A DNA stretch of 17,311 nucleotides from Oligoflexia bacterium (GTDB taxonomy: Bacteria; Bdellovibrionota; UBA1018; CAIMNF01): NCBI GenBank assembly GCA_903845155.1, contig CAIMWN010000287.1, positions 1 to 17,311 of the forward strand, read 5' to 3'. Shown piece after piece: positions 2,893 to 13,909 of this stretch. Below the pieces are notes generated by a model. That model did not search any database. It saw only the letters and a list, made by a program, of their open reading frames with translations, and had not been told where the DNA came from. The stretch's first letter is position 1. Each line of letters opens with the position of its first letter. The translations under genes and the position numbers were made by a program.

Positions 2893-3612
2893 ATGAAGAA
2901 CTGTATCATCGTTTTCTTATTGATTGCCTCAATACATACCGCTTATGCAGATGATTCTGCGGCCACGCTTAAAAATGAATCGGAAGCAGGAGTAGTGGTC
3001 ACCGGCGGAAACACGCAAACCGATACCATTTCACTGAAGGAAAAAACGGCGTACGAATGGAATAAGAATATTGTAAAGTTTGGTGCAAACTTCTTAACAA
3101 CTTCCAATGCCGGAAATCAACAGGCCTACCAGTGGGGCCTTGGCCTTCGTTATGAACGCGAGTTATCAGATCAAATTGGTATCTTCCTTGGTCAAGCCGT
3201 GGAAAGTAATAAGTATCAAGGTATCCTTCAGCGCTACAATTCAGACTTAGGTGGCAGATATACTTTTGTAAAAACAGAACAGTTTAAGTGGGCCTCGGAG
3301 TTAGGTTATCGTTTTACTCGTGAGAATTACACCTTGGATGGCTTCAAAAATATAAACTTTTTGCGACTTTATAACGAGCTGGAGAGAATGTTTACGAAAA
3401 CATTTACGATCAAGTGGTGGATTGAGTTTCTACCTAATATTACCACTTCTGAGGCCTATCAGCTCAACACAGAGCTTTCGGGTAGTGCTGCTATATCAGA
3501 AATGTTTTCGATGAAGGCGGGTTATTTGATTAAGTACAACAATCAACCACCTGTTGGGGCTATTTACAAAACAGATTCCATGTTTACCACTGCCCTCGTC
3601 GCTAAGTTCTAG
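2893..3612 (+). CDS. DUF481/YdiY-like outer-membrane beta-barrel protein
   Basis: Signal peptide MKNCIIVFLLIASIHTAYA|DD. Alternating beta-strand patterns. YdiY-like motifs (TGGNTQT..., GQA..SNKYQGI..RY, L.IKYNN.PP......D...T.AL). C-terminal aromatic ...VAKF. The ATG lies 1 nt after the dcd stop, suggesting translational coupling. Confidence 0.7.
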   Translation: MKNCIIVFLLIASIHTAYADDSAATLKNESEAGVVVTGGNTQTDTISLKEKTAYEWNKNIVKFGANFLTTSNAGNQQAYQWGLGLRYERELSDQIGIFLGQAVESNKYQGILQRYNSDLGGRYTFVKTEQFKWASELGYRFTRENYTLDGFKNINFLRLYNELERMFTKTFTIKWWIEFLPNITTSEAYQLNTELSGSAAISEMFSMKAGYLIKYNNQPPVGAIYKTDSMFTTALVAKF

Positions 3613-4589
3613 AAACAATGCCCTAAACTCACTAAGCCATTGGTTCCATCAAGTCCCTCATAATTCGCGGTCCCGCATCCGGTGAATACGAGCGTCTCTG
3701 TCGTTCCATTCATTTTTGCCCCTAGTGTGCTCGGGGTTACTCCACTGATTGTTGAAAAAGTGGTCGTAATGGTACCAGAGGTTGGAGTACAGCACCCAGC
3801 CTTGAATGCAACATTAGTGAAGCTAGATGATGCTTTGAGATGTGCCAAATTATGAAATGTGATGACCGTTCCCGAAGTAATTGTATTACCGTTTGAAATC
3901 ACGAGAGGCGATCCACCTGCATTAGTGGTCACTGTGTGTCTGAATCGGGTACTATTTAAATTTAATCCAGCGATCGCAATCTGTGTCCTGAGGCCTCCTG
4001 AAAAACTCACCGTTGTTCCTCCGCTATACACATTTCCATCTGCAGCCGTGGCGGCGCCGGTGGTATCAATGATTACGCCTACACCTGCTGCTGATGTACG
4101 CGAAGTGCCTAAGGAAAAAGTTCGAGTAACACTAGACATGGCACTCGGGAATGCGCTTCCACAAACGGGAGTCGCGCCCGTAAATGCCACAAACTGTGTT
4201 CCGTTCCAAACGGCAGCTGAAGATGAATAACTACAATTCGAATAAGTGAGGGTTGCAGTGTTTGCAGATACAGAGCAGTTAGCAACGGTACCACTCGCAA
4301 TCGTCGGACACGTAGTTCCGGCTTCTGCGTTTTTAAGCGGCAAAAATGCATCTAAGAATGAGCACATTTTTGATTCAGATTTCTGATCGATCCAAAAGTT
4401 TGCCAATGTGCCACCTGAGGAGCCATTAGCTGCACCACCCACTGCTGCGGCAACGGTCCCCGAAGTAGATGCATCATCCGTAGATGCTGCGGTCGTGGCT
4501 TTGCCACAAGCAGATGTGAATCCAATGAGGATGGTTAAAGATAGAAAAGATAGAATAGTCTGAAAATTCGTAATAAAATACATGCGCAC
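3609..4589 (-). CDS. Ser/Thr/Gly/Ala-rich, multi-cysteine lipoprotein of unknown function
   Basis: 326-aa ORF. Signal peptide plus lipobox (..LTILIGFTSAC|GK). The mature part is about 60% S/T/G/A/N with 10 further Cys (e.g. KMCSF, TTCPT, ANCSV, SNCSY, PVCGS, AGCCTP, TGCGT, GHCF). SD-like GAGAGG upstream. I recognise no family. Confidence 0.7.
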   Translation of the reverse strand: MRMYFITNFQTILSFLSLTILIGFTSACGKATTAASTDDASTSGTVAAAVGGAANGSSGGTLANFWIDQKSESKMCSFLDAFLPLKNAEAGTTCPTIASGTVANCSVSANTATLTYSNCSYSSSAAVWNGTQFVAFTGATPVCGSAFPSAMSSVTRTFSLGTSRTSAAGVGVIIDTTGAATAADGNVYSGGTTVSFSGGLRTQIAIAGLNLNSTRFRHTVTTNAGGSPLVISNGNTITSGTVITFHNLAHLKASSSFTNVAFKAGCCTPTSGTITTTFSTISGVTPSTLGAKMNGTTETLVFTGCGTANYEGLDGTNGLVSLGHCF

Positions 4590-4695: not shown

Positions 4696-5559
4696 TTAAA
4701 GATCTGGTGCGACATCGGGGGTAACTGCCGCAGGCGCTGGAACCGCTTTAGTAGCGGAGGCTGGTGCTCTACTTGGATCCTCAGTTGGTACAGCTTCTGC
4801 GGTTGCAGGCGCTGTGACTGGAGTGGTTACAGCTGGGTCCTGTGTGGTTTCAGGATTCTGCGTAATATTACTATTGAGGGGATTTACTTGTCCGGAGCCC
4901 GCGATCGTAGGCGCAAGCGAAATTCCGTATTTTGAAAAAACAGAAGTAGTGGTGACTTGGCCGTTCGTTTTTTGAACTTGAACCCATGGTTCTAAATCTG
5001 AACGCGAATTCTGAACAAAATTGAGGGTACTATCAGGCGTTGGATTCACCTTTTTGAAAAACACCCATTCAGATATTTTTGAATAATAGAGTGCTGCCCA
5101 ACGGAGGTATCTTGAATCTTTATAAACATCAACGTAGGCATTCGCGATGGGGCCCAAAAATCCAAAAGTATCCAAAACCTTTTTCTGACGAGTATTCCAG
5201 GTGGTGTCTCCTTGAATGGTGTCTTGTAGTTTTGAAATTTTAGCATAAAAACACCAGTGCATGCGCTCTGGGTCTTGAGTCACTAACTCTACTGCGCCTT
5301 TTCTAATGTCATCTTTCGATGTGGTGAGTTGACTAAGTTTCTTAAACTCATCGTCACAAGTATCGCCGAATTCCCCAAGCACACCCTTGGGCGCTAAAGG
5401 GCTGAAAAAAATGGCTTTGAGGTCAGCTAGTTCAAATCCCGCTGGATGTGGCACTTTTACATACTCGGGCACCTCAGGCAGCGGAATCTTTTCAGATACC
5501 GTTACTGTGCTTGAGCACCCTGCCAAAAGCATCAAACTAAAAATGCCGTATAGTCTCAT
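4696..5559 (-). CDS. Lipoprotein of unknown function with a Pro/Ala/Thr-rich C-terminal tail
   Basis: The ORF track extends to 5706. However, the Met at 5559 (MRLYGIFSLMLLAGC|SS) gives a canonical lipoprotein signal and has GAGGA 8 nt upstream. The Met at 5577 (MARINF...) is the alternative start. The longer version would overlap the divergent gene. The tail ...DPAVTTPVTAPATAEAVPTEDPSRAPASATKAVPAPAAVTPDVAPDL looks disordered. Confidence 0.65.
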   Translation of the reverse strand: MRLYGIFSLMLLAGCSSTVTVSEKIPLPEVPEYVKVPHPAGFELADLKAIFFSPLAPKGVLGEFGDTCDDEFKKLSQLTTSKDDIRKGAVELVTQDPERMHWCFYAKISKLQDTIQGDTTWNTRQKKVLDTFGFLGPIANAYVDVYKDSRYLRWAALYYSKISEWVFFKKVNPTPDSTLNFVQNSRSDLEPWVQVQKTNGQVTTTSVFSKYGISLAPTIAGSGQVNPLNSNITQNPETTQDPAVTTPVTAPATAEAVPTEDPSRAPASATKAVPAPAAVTPDVAPDL

Positions 5560-5692
5560 AAAATTGATCCTCGCCATTATCCTTATCGTCAAAATATTGA
5601 ATAACGTTAATTTTTTGTCGGATCTTTTTACTAAGTTAATAAGTTTCAAGGATTTAGCCAGTGTGTCCGAAAGGCTCTTTGTGAAGAACTCT
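5560..5692. promoter_or_regulatory. AT-rich divergent intergenic region, presumed to hold promoters for the minus-strand lipoprotein gene and the plus-strand five-gene operon
   Basis: 133 bp between two divergent signal-peptide-supported starts. It is visibly AT-rich (aaaatattgaataacgttaattttttgtcggatctttttactaagttaataagttt). I could not place convincing -35/-10 hexamers by eye. Confidence 0.35.
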
Positions 5693-6829
5693 ATGAAGAC
5701 AATCAATAGTAGCAGTACAAAGTTGGCAGGCGCAGTATTGTTGTTATTTTTAAGCTCAATTCCTAGTGTTTTTGCACAAAAAACGCAAGGTGAGGAGCAG
5801 CCACCTACCCCCAGTTCCAGTGCAAGTGGTGCAAGAAACTTCTATCAAGTGCTGGATGAAGTCCTTTCTGATTTTGAATACGATCTGAAAGCAGGCCAAG
5901 TGATTGGGCTAAAAGATCTCTCTATCAGAAATGTCGTCATGAGTGAAAATATCCCTCCTTCATTTAAATCACATCTAGAACTTTTGGTCTCCGAGCGCAT
6001 TTTAAAAACGACTAAAACGAGAATTGTACACTGTCTCGCCTGTAAGTCTAAAAAGGCAACACTCAATGGAGACAATATGGTGATTTCATCACCAGAATCA
6101 AATTCTTCCGAGCTCCAAAGAATTGCCAAAATGAATGGCATTCAAAACTTTATGGATATCGCTTTCGCCTATCAACCCACGGGCGTGCTTTTATCTTTTA
6201 CCATCTCAGATACAGAAACAGGCACCATGCTTTGGTCTCACAGTTATAATTCTGAGGGCACCCGCGCAGCAGCCCAGCGCCGTGGAGTTGATTTTCAAGA
6301 GCTAGAAGAAGCTAAGGCAAAAATGGAATATCAACCCACCATTCAAATGAAGCCAACGCTCTATACGGTGTTCGCTCCTAAAGCTAACTCTGGTTATGCA
6401 ACGGCTCTTGGATTCGGATTTAGAATGATGGAACGATATGACAATAGGAAAAAAGAAGTTGGATTTGAAATGAATTACTACAAGGACATTCCGTCACTGG
6501 TCGGAGAACCCGGTGCCTCTGCTGATAAAAATAATATTTATACTGGGTTAAACCTCACTTTCCTGTTTATGCATGGATGGGGCTTGTTTGGGGCAGAAGA
6601 GAATTACAATAAAGCGCGTGGAGTTGTTTATGGCGGTATCGGTGGCACGTACGCTTCAGGCTTTCTGGGTGGCCTCATTCGTGGTGCCTATGAGTGGCGC
6701 TTGGCGAAACATTGGGCGGTAACCACCTTTCTTGGTTATCGACCTCAGGCTACTTTGGTTATTTCTTCATCATCAACTGCACCCCTTACGGGTGTAGAAG
6801 GAGGACTCGGTGTTGGATTCCTATTCTAA
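5693..6829 (+). CDS. Two-domain outer-membrane protein: N-terminal periplasmic alpha/beta domain plus C-terminal small beta-barrel
   Basis: The start is reassigned to the internal Met at 5693, which gives a signal peptide (MKTINSSSTKLAGAVLLLFLSSIPSVFA|QK). The 5387 start would overlap the opposite-strand gene. The C-terminal ~170 aa show amphipathic strands (ALGFGFRM, VGFEMNYY, GLNLTFLF, GAYEWRL, WAVTTFLGY) and end in GLGVGFLF, a terminal Phe as in OMP sorting signals. The N-terminal domain loosely resembles FlgO/CsgG/LpoB-type folds (unverified). Confidence 0.65.
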   Translation: MKTINSSSTKLAGAVLLLFLSSIPSVFAQKTQGEEQPPTPSSSASGARNFYQVLDEVLSDFEYDLKAGQVIGLKDLSIRNVVMSENIPPSFKSHLELLVSERILKTTKTRIVHCLACKSKKATLNGDNMVISSPESNSSELQRIAKMNGIQNFMDIAFAYQPTGVLLSFTISDTETGTMLWSHSYNSEGTRAAAQRRGVDFQELEEAKAKMEYQPTIQMKPTLYTVFAPKANSGYATALGFGFRMMERYDNRKKEVGFEMNYYKDIPSLVGEPGASADKNNIYTGLNLTFLFMHGWGLFGAEENYNKARGVVYGGIGGTYASGFLGGLIRGAYEWRLAKHWAVTTFLGYRPQATLVISSSSTAPLTGVEGGLGVGFLF

Positions 6830-7532
6830 ATTTTATAGCGCTCTCATTGCATTGCTGATCGTATCAGCATGTTCAACCGCACAAAGTGTGCAGGAAAAAG
6901 AACAATCACGTATTGAAAATCCCTTTGGAAACTACAATCAAGAAACCAACGACCCAAGTCGCAATATTACTTTTAGAAGTAAAAAAGGTGATCAGGCATT
7001 GGAACTCGAGTTCCCCGAAAAAGGCAACTCCGACATGGTGATTCCGATGAATTCAAAATATCAAAACAACGAACGCACCTCTATCGCTGGAACGGACGAA
7101 GTAGATTATCAATACAAAGACCGCAAGCCTAGCATGGCTGACCGTGAAATTGCCTCCACATTTGGTGGTTCGAAAAATCTTGAAGATGAGTCCAAAAGGC
7201 ATGAGATTGAACAAAATTTAGGATTACAGCCAAGCGACGAAGCTCCCAATATGGATGAAAGCTATCTTGCAAAACTCGACGTAGTAAAACAACTTTTTAG
7301 AACGAAACGTTATGAAGCAGCCATGATTGAGATAGACCAATTGGTTAAGTCTTATCCGACCAATAGCCGTCTCTACGAAATGCGGGGAACACTTTTAGAT
7401 CGCATGGGTTATCAAGACCTTGCGTTACGCTCGTGGAAACAAGCGATAGAGCTTGATCCAACGCGAGTGACATTAAAGAAGACTATCGAAAAACGTGAGC
7501 AACAAAGAAGTGTTGCGTCTGAGAGGAAGTAA
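6810..7532 (+). CDS. TPR-repeat lipoprotein
   Basis: GTG start at 6810 is preceded by a strong SD (AAGGAGGA, 6798-6805) and overlaps the upstream stop by 20 nt. Lipobox ALLIVSAC|S. The central region looks disordered and acidic or polar. The C-terminus carries about 2 TPR units (RYEAAMIEIDQLVKSYPTNSRLYEMRGTLLDRMGYQDLALRSWKQAIELDP). Confidence 0.7.
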   Translation: MLDSYSKFYSALIALLIVSACSTAQSVQEKEQSRIENPFGNYNQETNDPSRNITFRSKKGDQALELEFPEKGNSDMVIPMNSKYQNNERTSIAGTDEVDYQYKDRKPSMADREIASTFGGSKNLEDESKRHEIEQNLGLQPSDEAPNMDESYLAKLDVVKQLFRTKRYEAAMIEIDQLVKSYPTNSRLYEMRGTLLDRMGYQDLALRSWKQAIELDPTRVTLKKTIEKREQQRSVASERK

Positions 7533-9911
7533 ATGATGAAAACCATAATTGCAATTATAGGAATGATGCAAGTAGTGGCCTTTGCCGGACCCTCAACGCT
7601 CGACGTGAAGAAACGGGGTGAGCAAGAAATCAAGCAAATTGTTCAACCGATCCTCACTCAGTACTGTCATGAACAATGCGAAATCATTGGTGCGAGCACT
7701 GAAGTGGATGTTGCCGTTCAAGACGAAGCTACTCCCGGTTTTGAAGACAATGTAGGAAAGGCAACCTTGACTCCGGTTTCAGGTAAAGTGCAAATCCTCG
7801 TGGACAAATTTCTATCAGATACCAAAAGAAAACAAGTAACCGATCTCATCGCTGAACACTTAAAGCAACTCGACTATAGAGTTGAAATTGAAAGCACGAT
7901 TAAGGAATTTCCTCAGCCTGCGGCTTCCGGATATCGCGTAGCTGAACTCCGTGAAAAGGTGACCAGAGACATCAAGGCATCTATGCAAAGTCTGATCAAT
8001 CAATTTTGTGCAGATTCATGTATTTTAGGACAGTTTGATGTGCAAACTGAAGTAGTGAATGCCGATGAAGTCAATTACGGTTCAAGCCAGGATTATTTTC
8101 AAGATGGTCCAGCAGCGATTCGGGTCCGAAATGTGAAGGCGACCGTGATGGTGGATCAATCTCTTCCAAAAGAAGAAGCAGCCGGAATTGTGGAGATGGC
8201 GAAAGTTAAATTAAGCCAATACAAAAATGCCCAGGTGACGAGTGAAGTGATGAATTTTCCGAAAACTTCAAGCATGCTCGCAAAAAATGGAATTTACGGC
8301 AATGGCCGCTATCCAGCGGGCGTTGACGGAAAAAATAGTGAAACCAGTGAATCTAAAGATTCAAAATTAGACGCTAAGAGTGACTCAAAATATGATTCTA
8401 AAACTGATTCGAAGTACGATGCCAAAACTGATTCAAAATACCAATCGTTAACAGACGCTAAAGAACAAACTACGCGCTCTGATGCTCGTTCTGAATCCTT
8501 GAAAAAGAATGAAACGAATAGCAATAGCAATAGCAATAATAATACTGAAAATAAATCTGAGAAATTTGAACGCTTTGAGAAAATTGAGCGCGTTGAAAAT
8601 GGAGATGCCGTTCAACAAGTGCTTGAAAAATTCCGCGTATACGGAATTATTCTTTCTGCGATCATGCTTGCTTTATTATTTAGTTTAGTTGCCATATCAT
8701 TTCGAAGAAACAATTGGGGTGGCGCGAAGGCAACTGATCAGGCGCATTCGCCAAAAGCTGAACAGGGTTCAAAAGGCGCGCCAAGTGCCGAGTCTGGTGT
8801 TCTTACTAGTGACGAGAAATCGGCGCTCATCGGAAAGAGGATTGAAGCCGATCGTCTCTTTAATGACCTTACTCAAATTTTTTCCGAACAGCCTAAAGTT
8901 GCGAAATATGTATTCACTCATGTTTTGACCGAAGAAGGCGTAGAGACTGCCGCCCAGTATTTGGAGATTTTTGGTGAAACCGTAATTATGGATCTGCTTC
9001 GCGATCCCGGTCTTCAGTCTGACTTGTCAGAACTGATGGATTTTTACGCTAAAAATACTTTTGATATTAATGATGATGAGACGTTAATGCTATTGAAGAA
9101 GCTCCATCATCGAACCGTCACCGCCAAAATGCAAGTTCATGGCAGCCGCTCCGCCGTGTTGTTCGATTTCTTGGCAGATATGGATACTCCACAGATTTTT
9201 GAAATGATCAAAAATGAATCGAATACAGTGAAGGCCATTGTCCTCACTCAGTGTGATCAGAAGAAACGTCAGGCTATTTTTGCATCTTATGATGACCATA
9301 ATCGTCTGAAACTGATGACCGAACTTTCTCGCATTGATCATTTACCAAAAAATTATATTTTCAACGTGGCCTCAGCGCTTCGTCGTAAGAAAGCTGAGAA
9401 TCCAAAACTCAATACTGAAGCGCTTCCGGGCACCGATGTGTTGGTCAGTTTCCTTGAAAAGGCGAGTGTGGATACCCAACGCACCATCATTCATCAACTC
9501 ATGTCTTCGGCTGGGGGCGATGTGCTCAATAACTTGAAAGCGAAGCTCGCCAGTGTGGAGACCTTGAGATTTGTGAAGGACGCCCAACTGACTGAAGTAA
9601 TTACCCATGTAAAACATGATGAACTTCTTCAGTTTCTACAGGGCTGTAGTAAGGATGTGCGAGAATCGGTGCTGTCTAAAGCACCGCAAGATCTTGCAGC
9701 TGATCTGAGTGATGGTCTGCAACTTTCTGAGCCGGTCAATCGTGATACCTACATCGCCGTTGAACGTAAGATCATCAATAGAATTAAGGTCCTTGCGAAC
9801 CAAGGGCAGATCAGTCTTACAGAAGTGAATGAACGGATGTTTGCAGAAGAGTTTGGATTTAATCATTCAAACCCTGACGTAACTGAAGTTGGATACGGGA
9901 AGGTAGGTTAA
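7533..9911 (+). CDS. Bitopic membrane protein with periplasmic tandem RBM-like repeats (FliF/SctJ-like topology), one TM helix and a cytoplasmic full-length FliG-like module
   Basis: The ATG directly abuts the upstream TAA (7530-7532); SD GAGAGGAAG. Signal peptide MMKTIIAIIGMMQVVAFA|GP. Two about 100-aa repeats (aa ~31-128 and ~145-244). Low-complexity linker. TM helix aa 369-390 (VYGIILSAIMLALLFSLVAISF) followed by RRNN (positive-inside). By hand, aa ~424-765 align with FliG N/M/C: LTSDEKSALI.. vs FliG LSG.EKAAILL; DTPQIFEMIKNESNTVKAIVLTQCDQKKRQAIFASYDDHNRLKLMTELSR vs ..LIRDEHPQIIATILVHL...AADIL..F.E.LR.DVM.RIA; DAQLTEVITHVKHDELLQFLQGCSKDVRESVLSKAPQDLAADL....EPV......VERKIINRIKVLANQGQISL vs DRSIQRLLQEVDSESLLIALKGA...LREKFL.NMSQRAA..LRDDL...GPVR...VE..QK.IL.IVRRLAE.GE.V. 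Confidence 0.7.
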   Translation: MMKTIIAIIGMMQVVAFAGPSTLDVKKRGEQEIKQIVQPILTQYCHEQCEIIGASTEVDVAVQDEATPGFEDNVGKATLTPVSGKVQILVDKFLSDTKRKQVTDLIAEHLKQLDYRVEIESTIKEFPQPAASGYRVAELREKVTRDIKASMQSLINQFCADSCILGQFDVQTEVVNADEVNYGSSQDYFQDGPAAIRVRNVKATVMVDQSLPKEEAAGIVEMAKVKLSQYKNAQVTSEVMNFPKTSSMLAKNGIYGNGRYPAGVDGKNSETSESKDSKLDAKSDSKYDSKTDSKYDAKTDSKYQSLTDAKEQTTRSDARSESLKKNETNSNSNSNNNTENKSEKFERFEKIERVENGDAVQQVLEKFRVYGIILSAIMLALLFSLVAISFRRNNWGGAKATDQAHSPKAEQGSKGAPSAESGVLTSDEKSALIGKRIEADRLFNDLTQIFSEQPKVAKYVFTHVLTEEGVETAAQYLEIFGETVIMDLLRDPGLQSDLSELMDFYAKNTFDINDDETLMLLKKLHHRTVTAKMQVHGSRSAVLFDFLADMDTPQIFEMIKNESNTVKAIVLTQCDQKKRQAIFASYDDHNRLKLMTELSRIDHLPKNYIFNVASALRRKKAENPKLNTEALPGTDVLVSFLEKASVDTQRTIIHQLMSSAGGDVLNNLKAKLASVETLRFVKDAQLTEVITHVKHDELLQFLQGCSKDVRESVLSKAPQDLAADLSDGLQLSEPVNRDTYIAVERKIINRIKVLANQGQISLTEVNERMFAEEFGFNHSNPDVTEVGYGKVG
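8355..8463 (+). repeat. In-frame imperfect 24-nt (8-aa) tandem repeat encoding [ST]DSKYD[AS]K units
   Basis: Translation is KDSKLDAK-SDSKYDSK-TDSKYDAK-TDSKYQSL-TDAK. The nucleotide units (gattctaaaactgattcgaagtac / gatgccaaaactgattcaaaatac) are visibly related. The repeat lies in the periplasmic juxtamembrane linker of the 792-aa protein. Confidence 0.8.
8517..8543 (+). repeat. Hexanucleotide microsatellite (AATAGC)x3 followed by AATAATAAT, encoding NSNSNSNNN
   Basis: Direct reading: aatagc aatagc aatagc aataat aat. The unit length is a multiple of 3, so slippage would keep the frame. Confidence 0.85.
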
Positions 9912-11556: not shown

Positions 11557-11689
11557 TTGTCCCTGTTTACCCAGTTGATTTATTAAACTAGGCAAATCAT
11601 TCCCATGGCAGCCCTTGTTTAATAATGAGATTCTGATTCAAGAGTCAGTGGAGATTCCAATTAAACTAAAAAGCAGGGAGCAATACAGG

Positions 11690-11845
11690 ATGTCTACTCC
11701 AAAGGTTAAAACCATACGTACCAGTTCGATCGAGGTGATTGCACTTATCGCATCCCTGTTTTTTCTCGTGGCCGGCATGACTTTGATTTCGAATGGAAAA
11801 AAGATTTATGCAAATCAGCTCAAATTATCCGAGCGAATTAGATAA
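11690..11845 (+). CDS. Possible 51-aa single-TM small membrane protein (hypothetical)
   Basis: Internal Met of the 11615 ORF: MSTPKVKTIRTSSIEVIALIASLFFLVAGMTLISNGKKIYANQLKLSERIR. It has a basic N-terminus and one hydrophobic helix. A purine-rich AGGGAG lies ~13 nt upstream. There is no homology evidence, so it could be non-coding. Confidence 0.3.
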   Translation: MSTPKVKTIRTSSIEVIALIASLFFLVAGMTLISNGKKIYANQLKLSERIR

Positions 11846-12045: not shown

Positions 12046-12097
12046 ATAGTAATATTTTAAGTAACCAAAAATCGATTCGTTGTCTATACTAAATTTA

Positions 12098-13909
12098 ATG
12101 CACCACAGACGCAATACTCTTCTTATAAATTTACTTTTTTTATTTATATTCGTGGAGAGTCCCATTTTCATTACGCCAGTTCATGCAAAACCTGAGAACT
12201 TAAGCGCACTGCTCCAGAGATGGACGCCACCCGAAGTGAAGAAATCCGTAAAAAAATCACCTAAAAAGAAGGCGGCTCAAGTCGCTTTAGGGGTAGAGGC
12301 CCTTCCTCTGGAGTACTGGATATACTTTGAAGCGAAGGCTGCTTTAGAAAAGAAGTTAGATCTTAAATCAATTGAATCGCTTGAGAAAAGAATTTTAGAA
12401 GTTCGCTTGAATGCAGATACACGTGCGCTCGAAAAGGAATTTGATGAGCTTTTTTATGCGCTCGAAATTAAGCGTGCGGAGAGGCAGGTCAGGCTAAAAT
12501 CGTGGCGCCTAGCCACTCGCTCTTTTACTCACGCCATGAATGCGCTTCATACCTTTAAGTGGATTTATTATTGGAGAGCTGAAACTTCCGATGCTCTGGT
12601 TGCACTCTGCACGCGAAAAGCTAAGGTGAAAGACGATGCCTGTCCGGTCCTTGCAAAAAGGGTAGTTGATGCCTTTCCGAAAAGCGCAACGGAAACTAAG
12701 GTACTAAGGGATTTGCCCGCCATTGAAGCATCCCCCCTGGTTGATGTGGCGACGGCCGACCGCCTTTCTCAGCCTTATCCTGAAAAGACCGAACAAGATG
12801 AAGAGGCTTTTGCAGATGTCCTCGATGATTATCTCAATGGGAAAGATCACGAATTGTTTGAGCACGCGAAACTGTTCATGAACGATTTTCCAAAATCAAT
12901 CTTACGCTTTAGGGCGTTGTTCTTAATGGCCGAGTTTGATTTCAAGTTCAATAGAAAAAAAGACGCCAAAGAAAAATACGATCAAATTATTAGCCAAATC
13001 CCGCTCAGTTATTATGCAGTAGTGGCAGCAGAGCGCAACGGCGTTCAACTCAGGGACCAAGTGAAGAAGGATATGATCAAAGTAGATCTCGATCAACTAA
13101 ACCTTCAGTACCCTGAAAAACAGGCTTTAGTTCGGGCTGAAAGTCTTTATGTGAAGAAACATTATGAAGAAGTCGCATTGGAGCTTGAAACCTTAACGAG
13201 AGTGCGCGCCTACAATCTCGACACCATTTTATATGTGATGGGTCTTGCTCATCAATCCAATCAAGACCTGACTGCATTTAGAATTGCGAACGAATTGATT
13301 CAGCGGAAGTATGATGGTTTACTTGCGAATGAATTCTTGGAAATGATTTTTCCGGATCGGTATTCTGAAGACATTGAACTTTATTCAAAATTAAATAAAA
13401 TCGATCCGCTTTGGGTTATGTCTTTGATGAAGCAAGAGTCGGGTTTTAAGGCACCCATCCTCTCTTCCTCTGGTGCGATGGGACTCATGCAATTGATGCC
13501 TTTTACCGCGCTCGACGTTCAAAAAGATGTGCTCCTTTCATCATTAAAGCAACCATCCAATAATATTTCGATTGGCACTAAATACATTGCTTCGCTTGCG
13601 GAGAAATACAATGGCAACATGGTCTTCGCGCTTGCAGCCTATAATGCAGGCCCAAATCGCGTTGCAAAATGGAAGAAAGACGCGAAACCAAATTGGGGAA
13701 TGACCGAGTTTATAGAATCCATTCCGTATAAGGAAACTCGTGACTATGTGATGTCGATCTTCAGAAATCATTATTGGTATCAGTATCGAAAGGGTCAATC
13801 AGCACAAAGCGTCTTTGATCCCAATTTCGATTTAAAAAGACCAATCGATACCAAAACCGATTCTAAAACTGATGCCAGAGTAGATGTGAAGCTCGAAGCG
13901 AAGAAATAG
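12098..13909 (+). CDS. slt: Soluble lytic murein transglycosylase (Slt70-like: N-terminal helical repeat domain plus C-terminal SLT/GEWL domain)
   Basis: I prefer the ATG at 12098 (MHHRRNTLLINLLFLFIFVESPIFITPVHA|KPE, a signal peptide) over the TTG at 12080. SLT catalytic motifs are present: MSLMKQESGFK (catalytic Glu), GAMGLMQLMP and AAYNAGPNRV. The long helical N-terminal region is as in Slt70. Confidence 0.85.
   Translation: MHHRRNTLLINLLFLFIFVESPIFITPVHAKPENLSALLQRWTPPEVKKSVKKSPKKKAAQVALGVEALPLEYWIYFEAKAALEKKLDLKSIESLEKRILEVRLNADTRALEKEFDELFYALEIKRAERQVRLKSWRLATRSFTHAMNALHTFKWIYYWRAETSDALVALCTRKAKVKDDACPVLAKRVVDAFPKSATETKVLRDLPAIEASPLVDVATADRLSQPYPEKTEQDEEAFADVLDDYLNGKDHELFEHAKLFMNDFPKSILRFRALFLMAEFDFKFNRKKDAKEKYDQIISQIPLSYYAVVAAERNGVQLRDQVKKDMIKVDLDQLNLQYPEKQALVRAESLYVKKHYEEVALELETLTRVRAYNLDTILYVMGLAHQSNQDLTAFRIANELIQRKYDGLLANEFLEMIFPDRYSEDIELYSKLNKIDPLWVMSLMKQESGFKAPILSSSGAMGLMQLMPFTALDVQKDVLLSSLKQPSNNISIGTKYIASLAEKYNGNMVFALAAYNAGPNRVAKWKKDAKPNWGMTEFIESIPYKETRDYVMSIFRNHYWYQYRKGQSAQSVFDPNFDLKRPIDTKTDSKTDARVDVKLEAKK

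Follow-up and report, generated by a model that had tools for sequence, protein, structure and literature searches.

A natural protein fusion of a predicted ring-building-motif fold with a FliG-like domain, encoded beside a MotA/MotB-like stator pair in Bdellovibrionota

In a stretch of 17,311 nucleotides from an Oligoflexia bacterium (GenBank assembly GCA_903845155.1, contig CAIMWN010000287.1; hereafter the window), an open reading frame (ORF) with an ATG start, listed at 7533..9911 on the + strand, encodes a protein of 792 amino acids that joins a periplasmic half with a predicted ring-building-motif (RBM) fold, through a single transmembrane helix, to a cytoplasmic half that by sequence and structural model appears to be a true but very divergent full-length homolog of FliG. 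Directly downstream lies a MotA/MotB pair, of which an earlier, first-pass annotation of this DNA had made no use, and the operon of the window holds no flagellar export, rod or switch genes and none that belong to a type III secretion system (T3SS). The pair that generates torque, and that defines the bacterial flagellum, is FliG with MotAB; no described use of FliG outside of the flagellum is known to us. The module is rated here as a flagellar rotor-stator pair that has been redeployed in a different, simpler machine. The reading that we favour, tentatively and with belief a little behind doubt, is that of an autonomous machine, driven by ions and spanning the envelope but not a flagellum, in which the fusion protein serves as rotor or receives the force, most likely as a ring.

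The fusion protein and its two halves

The gene is a real and conserved one rather than an artefact, since the identical fusion protein is present on 3 metagenome contigs, full-length homologs (740-840 amino acids, 40-71% identity) number more than 120, nearly all of them in Bdellovibrionota metagenome-assembled genomes (MAGs), and the family occurs in 77 loci in a scan of one genome per GTDB species. An artefact of assembly or frameshift is ruled out by the single ORF that is kept in more than 150 cluster representatives and in the 77 species genomes. Base composition is even over the region around the gene. Homologs are annotated as 'FliG', as 'FliG C-terminal domain-containing protein' or as 'hypothetical'. 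The translation of the ORF contains every peptide that the first-pass annotation had quoted, and together with hydropathy it confirms the layout proposed there, namely a signal peptide, a periplasmic part, a single transmembrane helix followed by RRNN, and about 400 cytoplasmic residues (Table 1).

That the cytoplasmic part is FliG, including the C-terminal ARM/torque-helix region, had also been proposed from the sequence, and this is borne out by domain, profile and structure searches alike. Pfam places FliG_M (PF14841) at residues 554-623 with 36.5 bits against a cut-off of 25 and FliG_C (PF01706) at residues 664-762 with 49.9 bits against a cut-off of 23.3; there is no Pfam match to FliG_N in the fusion protein. 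A phmmer search of the PDB with the single sequence finds the full-length FliG of Aquifex (3hjl_A, E=1.5e-8) over residues 489-762, reaching residue 52 of 3hjl, and a profile made of 60 family members picks up, apart from designed ARM proteins, nothing but FliG chains (E=5e-13 to 4e-11). The MAFFT alignment with E. coli FliG is colinear from E. coli residue ~5. A full-length AlphaFold2 (AF2) model calculated from the family alignment has a mean predicted local distance difference test score (pLDDT) of 77, with values above 90 in most folded blocks. In Foldseek 317-322 columns align to full-length FliG chains of 310-331 residues with probability 1.00 and 16-18% identity, for instance to 8umx_B with E=8e-9 and to 3hjl with E=5e-8, so all three FliG domains appear to be represented. 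The FliG_C structure 1qc7_A is matched with a template-modelling score (TM-score) of 0.73 and a root-mean-square deviation of 1.6 over 83 columns.

The divergence of this FliG-like region is nevertheless large. Identity to solved FliGs is ~17-19%, and in the comparison with the TIGR00207 fliG equivalog, which has its cut-off at 226.7 bits, the score is 62 bits, with profile positions 109-329 alone covered. The FliM-docking motif is gone, since in the alignment to E. coli FliG the EHPQ sequence is replaced by ESNT or ESLT and R160 is now an invariant glutamate, E597. The acidic pair of the torque helix, D288/D289 in E. coli, reads EE in the consensus of the family and DG in the protein of the window, and the region of the M-C linker is invariant in the form of ELSRIDxLP and ALRRKKxENPKLNTEALPG. 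The usual FliG is a soluble protein of ~330 residues that is encoded among fliF, fliH, fliM and fliN; here it forms part of a 792-residue membrane protein in a non-flagellar operon.

The N-terminus of the fusion reads MMKTIIAIIGMMQVVAFA/GP, and hydropathy gives an N-terminal hydrophobic segment and one strong internal transmembrane segment at residues 366-392, after which comes RRNN. Among 60 homologs, 57 begin with a signal-peptide-like sequence with small-x-small sites, the net charge is -1.0 in the 15 residues preceding the transmembrane helix and +2.4 in the 15 that follow it, and all 60 have exactly four invariant cysteines, arranged as two CxxxC pairs, in the periplasmic domains. Because of the signal peptide, the positive-inside charges and the distribution of cysteines, the N-terminal half is predicted to be periplasmic and the FliG-like half cytoplasmic (N-out/C-in), which upholds the single-pass topology first suggested for the protein. 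A periplasmic location for the FliG-like domain, as is found in E-ring proteins, is ruled out on the same three grounds. No cysteine follows directly on the signal peptide, so there is no lipobox. FliF is characterised by two transmembrane helices flanking its periplasmic region; the fusion has a cleavable-type signal peptide and one transmembrane helix.

In AF2 models of residues 20-262 (pLDDT 81) and of the full-length protein, the periplasmic half folds into two tandem alpha-beta-beta-alpha-beta units with long beta-hairpins. These are duplicates of one another (hhalign probability 97.5%, E=4.9e-12), each having an invariant CxxxC motif and a terminal FP. Repeat 1, modelled at pLDDT ~90, contains the invariant C45/C49 and PGF68-70 and ends with FPQP, and repeat 2 contains the invariant C159/C163 and ends with FP. 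The top Foldseek matches in the PDB are chains of the Salmonella FliF MS-ring (7bk0_B, E=4.7e-7; 6scn_A, E=3.8e-6; probability 1.00), and further down come FliF RBM3/collar chains and the inner-membrane-ring chains 8axn and 6rwx of the Shigella injectisome (E~4e-3 to 6e-3).

Sequence methods give no such match. Pfam YscJ_FliF (PF01514) is not found in the protein of the window at E<=0.1, nor in 24 family members at E<=10, and the periplasmic domain is without a match to any known family in Pfam or NCBIfam. In hhalign the comparison with E. coli FliF has a probability of 0.6%, and neither the periplasmic nor the full-family profile finds FliF in the PDB; in the FliF-FliG fusion entry 8z4d, which appears in the PDB profile search, the FliG part alone aligns. 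A sequence link to FliF is rejected on these results. The periplasmic half is, to judge from the models, a new sequence family with an RBM fold, and the layout of signal peptide, two RBM-type domains and one transmembrane helix is closest to that of SctJ. Of the earlier idea that RBM-like repeats replace RBM1-3 of FliF, what survives is the presence of two domains of RBM topology with FliF as the best structural match, and what falls away is homology to FliF at the level of sequence, with a layout that stands nearer to SctJ.

Between repeat 2 and the membrane lies a linker rich in S, N, T and K, the length of which varies from 35 to 99 residues (median 79) in the 60 homologs and the sequence of which is not conserved. 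It is followed by a nearly invariant juxtamembrane periplasmic helix, EKFERFEKIERVENGDAVQ, which leads into the transmembrane helix. This stretch (window 8559-8627, residues 343-365), with the pattern E(K/R)FExxEKIERVENGDAVQ, is the best-conserved of the whole 792-residue protein, and E349, E352, R353, V354, E355, G357, D358 and A359 are invariant in the 60 sequences. In the AF2 model the juxtamembrane and transmembrane segments form an unbroken helix from 354 to 394. The conservation of the juxtamembrane segment exceeds that of the FliG-like torque helix.

Table 1. Coordinates of the parts of the fusion protein and of associated genes (window coordinates unless a locus is named; synteny among 79 related loci; aa, amino acids; TPR, tetratricopeptide repeat; cNMP, cyclic nucleotide monophosphate)
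Feature	Residues	Position	Strand	Remarks
unkB lipoprotein, 287 aa, lipobox LLAGC/S		4696..5559	-	divergently transcribed; syntenic in 57-59 loci
unkC, 378 aa, signal peptide ..SVFA/Q		5693..6829	+	core; syntenic in 67/79 loci
TPR lipoprotein, 240 aa, lipobox IVSAC/S	TPR ~155-220	6810..7532	+	core; syntenic in 72/79 loci
Fusion: Sec signal peptide, AFA/G site	1-19	7533..7589	+	cleavage inferred from sequence
Fusion: periplasmic repeat 1	21-129	7593..7919	+	AF2, invariant columns, Foldseek
Fusion: periplasmic repeat 2	130-245	7920..8267	+	hhalign against repeat 1, AF2
Fusion: disordered low-complexity periplasmic linker	246-342	8268..8558	+	pLDDT 30-40; K/D/S/N/T-rich
Fusion: juxtamembrane helix, transmembrane helix (366-392) and RRNN	343-392	8559..8708	+	alignment, AF2, hydropathy
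Fusion: cytoplasmic FliG-like region (N, M, C), all-helical, ARM-like	425-775	8805..9857	+	Pfam, phmmer, Foldseek
MotA-like stator A subunit, 261 aa		9916..10701	+	Pfam MotA_ExbB 67.5 bits; syntenic in 75/79 loci
MotB-like stator B subunit, 282 aa		10708..11556	+	MotB_plug 53.2 bits, OmpA 58.4 bits; syntenic in 71/79 loci
cNMP-binding gene, examples in other loci		L022:10316-10822; L089:12391-12897; L090:12355-12867

The stator pair, the partner genes and variants of the module

The two genes that follow the fusion encode a predicted stator pair of the flagellar type. The MotA_ExbB, MotB_plug and OmpA matches are all above the Pfam cut-off, and MotB has both a plug and an OmpA-like peptidoglycan-binding domain. 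In NCBIfam the best matches of MotA are MotA, MotP and PomA, over the full length and with ~136 bits against an equivalog cut-off of 340 that is not reached, and those of MotB are MotD, MotS and MotB, likewise over the full length, with 132 bits against an equivalog cut-off of 283 that is also not reached. The pair retains the residues that are needed by a working stator, for the position of MotB D32 is Asp in 45/45 sequences, those of MotA P173 and P222 are each Pro in 70/70, and that of MotA R90 is K or R in 57/70. With a basic residue at the R90 position and EE in the FliG consensus (DG in the window), the charge complementarity of rotor and stator is partly retained.

The operon of the window runs in the order unkC, TPR lipoprotein, fusion, MotA and MotB, with gaps of 4-20 nucleotides or overlaps; the stop codon of the TPR gene abuts the ATG of the fusion (TAAATG) within the junction gaggaagTAAATG. 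These five genes form the core of the module and are syntenic in 67-75 of the 79 related loci, with some 70 genomes of Bdellovibrionota sharing the core, while the outer flanking genes (leuS, dcd, SLT, prs and pth) are common to close relatives only. As the flanking genes differ between clades, the module moves as a unit.

The unkC protein is a putative outer-membrane beta-barrel protein, with a conserved N-terminal periplasmic domain that carries a CxxC motif and a C-terminal half that is rich in Gly and aromatic residues and ends in GVGFLF. Pfam gives weak DUF3575 matches in 10 of 31 members of its family and OMP_b-brl in 1, and the family profile finds no match in the PDB. The mechanical ORF of unkC (5387-6829, 480 residues, TTG start) overlaps the divergent unkB gene by ~170 nucleotides. 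The true start, according to the gene call and the alignment of homologs, is the ATG at 5693, and the protein then begins with a signal peptide. Between unkB and unkC there is an AT-rich divergent intergenic region of 133 bp (5560-5692); promoter and terminator scans of the window did no better than on shuffled sequence. The unkB lipoprotein, which has no significant match in Pfam or NCBIfam, is a possible accessory component of the module. In the TPR lipoprotein the Pfam models TPR_2, TPR_8 and TPR_14 are all matched below cut-off.

Further genes accompany the module in some of the clades. In 61/71 loci a gene for a cNMP-binding protein (168-170 residues, Pfam cNMP_binding E=1.2e-19) is inserted between the fusion and motA. 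The 10 loci of the clade of the window have no such gene, and the spacing from fusion to motA there is 8-55 bp. The cNMP-binding protein likely regulates the module and has been lost or moved in the clade of the window. Directly after motB, at a distance of 40-760 bp, L089 (14725-15654) and ~45 other loci have a gene for a 309-residue protein with an N-terminal Zn-ribbon, a Pro-rich stretch, one transmembrane helix, an Ala/Pro-rich linker and a weakly SH3_3-like C-terminus, a layout that presumably resembles that of the TonB-like GltJ of Myxococcus. This gene is absent in the window and has been lost by its clade. Between motB and the SLT gene of the window (11615-11845, + strand) there is a 76-residue ORF with one strong transmembrane helix; it is probably a real small membrane protein, with 39-48% identity in 9 close loci, and the gene caller chose a different ORF of 51 residues there. 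The SLT-domain lytic transglycosylase that comes next (12080-13909, + strand, 609 residues) has a superhelical/TPR-like N-terminal part. On the other side, at 3609-4589 on the - strand, lies a gene for a lipoprotein of 326 residues that is rich in Thr, Ser, Gly and Ala, has the lipobox FTSAC/G and several Cys, and is without a family match. It is placed outside of the module because it is found only in identical contigs (2 loci).

An exhaustive search that used a profile of just the periplasmic domain yields 152 cluster representatives, among which there are both longer and shorter forms of the fusion. Variants of 900-990 residues have an N-terminal extension. In those of 969-986 residues (P0180; L085:6961-9870) an Asn/Glu/Phe-rich low-complexity extension of ~170 residues precedes both repeats. 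The operon that encodes the 969-residue variant in L085 has the order unkC-like, TPR-like, MotA, MotB and fusion. Beyond a convergent smpB, at ~600 bp downstream, the same strand carries a gene for a prepilin peptidase (A24).

About 35 short forms of 540-625 residues consist of one repeat (repeat 1), a proline-rich linker, a transmembrane helix and the FliG-like C-terminus, and in these MotB is encoded immediately upstream of the fusion. The short forms belong to lineages other than the predatory Bdellovibrionota, and among these a Persicimonas (Bradymonadales) MAG, with one partial protein, is the only named source. From their length alone the forms of ~580 residues might be taken for FliF, which is rejected as they are one-repeat fusions with a FliG-like C-terminus. 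Their operons can be larger: L086:1120-13365 and L088:1126-13205 each hold ~11 co-directional genes, including homologs of unkC and of the TPR gene as well as MotA, MotB and the fusion. The extra genes, for two proteins with weak OMP_b-brl matches, several family-less proteins of 500-700 residues and a lipoprotein after the fusion, are conserved between the two loci and have no counterpart in the window. The last gene (180 residues; L086:12823-13365) has a sub-threshold match to TonB_C (E=0.008, 17 bits against 24.6).

Homologs of unkC are thus seen in L085, L086 and L088, and those of the TPR protein in L085 and L088 and, in fused form, in L086. In the latter, a 7.5-Mb genome of 67% GC, the unkC and TPR homologs make up one protein of 689 residues (L086:6226-8295), and in L088 they are separate, with 479 and 266 residues. 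The fusion suggests, in the manner of a Rosetta stone, that the unkC-like and TPR-like proteins interact physically. The five-gene core persists through these changes in gene order and in domain number and over 44-67% GC, which is strong evidence that it is a functional unit.

Possible workings of the module and competing readings

What would such a set of proteins do? On the favoured reading, that of an autonomous machine with the fusion as its rotor or force-receiving subunit, MotB would anchor the MotA5B2 complex to the peptidoglycan and the flow of ions would turn the MotA pentamer, the basic cytoplasmic loop of which would push the acidic torque helix of the FliG-like C-domain. With FliG being covalently anchored in the membrane, the force would drive the fusion protein within the membrane plane. 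The subunits would be held as a ring by the RBM-like domains and by FliG-FliG stacking, giving a rotor without secretion system, rod or switch. Motion would pass by way of the transmembrane helix, the juxtamembrane helix and the long flexible linker to the periplasmic domains, and these would dock on the pair of outer-membrane barrel and TPR lipoprotein, so that work is done at the outer membrane. In these predatory lineages, that work could plausibly serve surface motility or contact with prey. A ring is favoured because the periplasmic domains best match ring-forming proteins, because SctJ, whose layout the fusion resembles, builds rings, and because what appear to be all three FliG domains, with the invariant M-C linker, are kept where FliG_C alone would be enough as a handle. 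That the module is a free-standing rotary motor, in which SctJ/FliF-like-FliG rings are spun by dedicated stators and coupled to an outer-membrane complex, either as a relic-like pre-flagellar relative or through re-use, is a proposal about which we are rather doubtful. A re-used pair would have an envelope function, for instance in gliding or prey attack. The first-pass annotation had seen in the fusion a minimal rotor in one gene. The fusion is not a compacted flagellar rotor, because EHPQ and R160 are lost and the operon has no export, rod or switch genes, and the module has outer-membrane partners besides.

Several points weigh against the favoured reading. TM-scores to FliF are low, at 0.26-0.28, for the two-domain unit, those against single RBM3 chains being moderate at 0.39-0.50, and the term 'FliF-like' holds for fold and architecture only because every sequence method is negative against FliF, which makes the likeness a structural one. 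The barrel assignment of unkC rests on weak matches and sequence features. The linker is disordered and non-conserved, with pLDDT values of 30-40, and in the short forms it is proline-rich; such a linker is unlike FliF and would be a poor torque shaft, being better suited as a tether. The same set of genes could accordingly work without a ring, as a force transducer akin to TonB, TolA or GltJ, one or a few copies of which would be gripped by MotA via the FliG-like domain, so that the linker would be pulled or wound and tension would reach the periplasmic domains bound to the complex of outer-membrane barrel and TPR protein. A flexible tether of 35-99 residues in the long form and a TonB-like, proline-rich one in the short form, each with a globular periplasmic domain at its far end, would be apt for this purpose, the outer-membrane beta-barrel and TPR-lipoprotein partners are conserved, and weak hints come from the TonB_C match below cut-off in L086 and from the Zn-ribbon/SH3-like gene after motB. 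We consider the transducer unlikely, however. FliG_C would suffice if MotA had only to grip the protein, whereas what appear to be all three FliG domains are kept and highly conserved, the retained M-C linker serves ring stacking in flagella, and the best matches of the periplasmic domains are FliF and the inner-membrane-ring proteins of T3SS, not TonB_C.

A further point against an autonomous machine is that in 19 of the 45 loci whose sequence reaches far enough, all of the larger clade, flagellin genes are present 3-7 kb upstream, from which it follows that the hosts are flagellated. Pairs of such genes (Flagellin_N and Flagellin_C, ~275 residues) are found at L089:1-1547, at L090:3766-5886 and in 22 other loci. 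The module might then be an accessory of the flagellar motor, providing extra stators and a scaffold or docking ring in the way of PflA/PflB/FlgP or of the E-ring proteins FlgY/MotE, and in keeping with this the MotA/MotB pair is of the flagellar type, with a plug and with MotA, MotP and PomA as best matches, stators have ARM-like MgtE_N domains and TPR proteins as partners in known flagellar accessories (PMC13023049), and the downstream SLT protein has as its best NCBIfam match the Borrelia BB0259 'flagellar assembly lytic transglycosylase' (170.7 bits, below the cut-off of 234). The flagellins are, however, set apart from the module by genes for MeaB and for a peptidase of family M48, are oriented either way, occur in one clade only, and were not found around the window, L085, L086 or L088, such that their proximity is read as clade-level synteny rather than as operon membership. 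Relatives of E. coli FliE, FliF or FliH are absent from all of 86 loci, and in the operons of the window, L085, L086 and L088 there are no flagellar Pfam families besides FliG, MotA and MotB, nor are there flagellar structural, export or switch genes in or beside them. Furthermore, a second, membrane-tethered FliG would compete with that of the motor for MotA, the FliG-like part is cytoplasmic, unlike the ARM domains of the E-ring, and synteny of the SLT gene with the module extends to 12/79 loci only, all in the clade of the window. A role as flagellar accessory thus appears quite improbable.

Two simpler identifications can be given next to no credence. An ordinary flagellar FliG, or a fliF-fliG pair merged by frameshift or assembly error, would agree with the name 'flagellar motor switch protein FliG' that JGI gives to homologs and with the FliG_M and FliG_C matches, but it is at odds with the TIGR00207 score, the low identity to solved FliGs, the lost FliM-docking motif, the N-terminal half without sequence similarity to FliF, the single ORF that is conserved widely, and the want of a flagellar operon context. 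A Zorya-like anti-phage defence system built on a MotAB-like pair is brought to mind by MotB, which matches the ZorB models of PADLOC with a best E=1.3e-21. This reflects generic MotB homology, as NCBIfam scores MotD, MotS and MotB far above ZorB1, and there is no ZorA match for MotA, no ZorC or ZorD, and no PADLOC match for the fusion, unkC, the TPR protein or unkB; the module is also chromosomal, vertically conserved and of the same base composition as its flanks. With MotB alone matching ZorB models in PADLOC, identity with Zorya is rejected.

Relation to known machines and wider meaning

The nearest point of reference is the rotor-stator core of the flagellum, that is FliF, FliG and MotA5B2. 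The module shares with it what appear to be the three FliG domains, the torque-helix region, a stator with plug, peptidoglycan-binding domain, conserved Asp and both Pro, and an order of periplasmic domains, transmembrane helix and FliG that mirrors FliF followed by FliG. It differs in having one polypeptide for two, a signal peptide in place of the first transmembrane helix of FliF, two repeats and not RBM1-3, and a long disordered linker before the membrane. The EHPQ/R160 features are missing, the operon has no FliM/N, export, rod or hook genes, and in their stead there are dedicated partners in the form of the putative outer-membrane barrel and the TPR lipoprotein. In Salmonella, FliF-FliG fusions, whether engineered or spontaneous, are compatible with rotation. 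An engineered FliF-FliG fusion of Vibrio forms rings in membranes (PMC10941966). Such constructs likewise tie an MS-ring-type protein covalently and 1:1 to FliG, in a manner that is compatible there with ring assembly, whereas they are made of canonical FliF and FliG within a full flagellum and the present family is natural, ancient, divergent and encoded in a non-flagellar operon.

With SctJ (PrgK/YscJ/MxiJ) the fusion has in common an export signal, two alpha-beta-beta-alpha-beta domains and a C-terminal transmembrane helix, and it differs in lacking a lipobox, any sequence similarity and T3SS genes beside it, the cytoplasmic tail of SctJ being short and not a FliG. TonB-ExbBD, TolA-TolQR and Agl-Glt (GltG/GltJ) resemble the module in combining an inner-membrane ion motor of the 5:2 type with a single-pass linker protein that has a periplasmic globular domain, in their outer-membrane beta-barrel, TPR and lipoprotein partners, and in their predatory or gliding hosts. 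In the module, by contrast, coupling would use the cytoplasmic FliG-MotA interface and not a contact between transmembrane helices, the stator is of the MotAB type with a plug, and the protein lies the other way round in the membrane (N-out). Homology to TonB, TolA or Glt proteins is not established at the level of sequence, the sub-threshold TonB_C match being in a neighbouring gene only. The E-ring proteins FlgY, FlbB and MotE are small proteins with periplasmic ARM-like (MgtE_N/FliG-like) domains and have the TPR partners PflA, MotC, MotK and FlcB (PMC13023049). They too represent an ARM-like protein encoded with a TPR protein and tied to stators, but the FliG of the module appears to be full and is cytoplasmic, and it lies outside of a flagellar cluster.

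Full-text searches of the literature turned up no account of FliG naturally fused to a FliF/SctJ-like part, nor one of FliG and MotAB forming a module away from flagellar clusters, and the accessible part of a paper on MotAB phylogeny reports no such neighbourhood. A preprint goes no further than to raise the possibility of another role for rotor proteins in non-motile species (10.1101/2024.12.05.626484). The database label 'FliG' on the proteins described here is a mislabel, and it will distort genome-based predictions of motility. If the proposed machine is real, it would be a new member of the 5:2 ion-motor systems, alongside the flagellum, Ton, Tol, Gld, Agl and Zorya, and the interface between stator and FliG could be studied in a far simpler setting. 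The long-standing question of how rotor and stator could cooperate when the flagellum's type III secretion core was not yet there, or is lacking, would then become directly testable.

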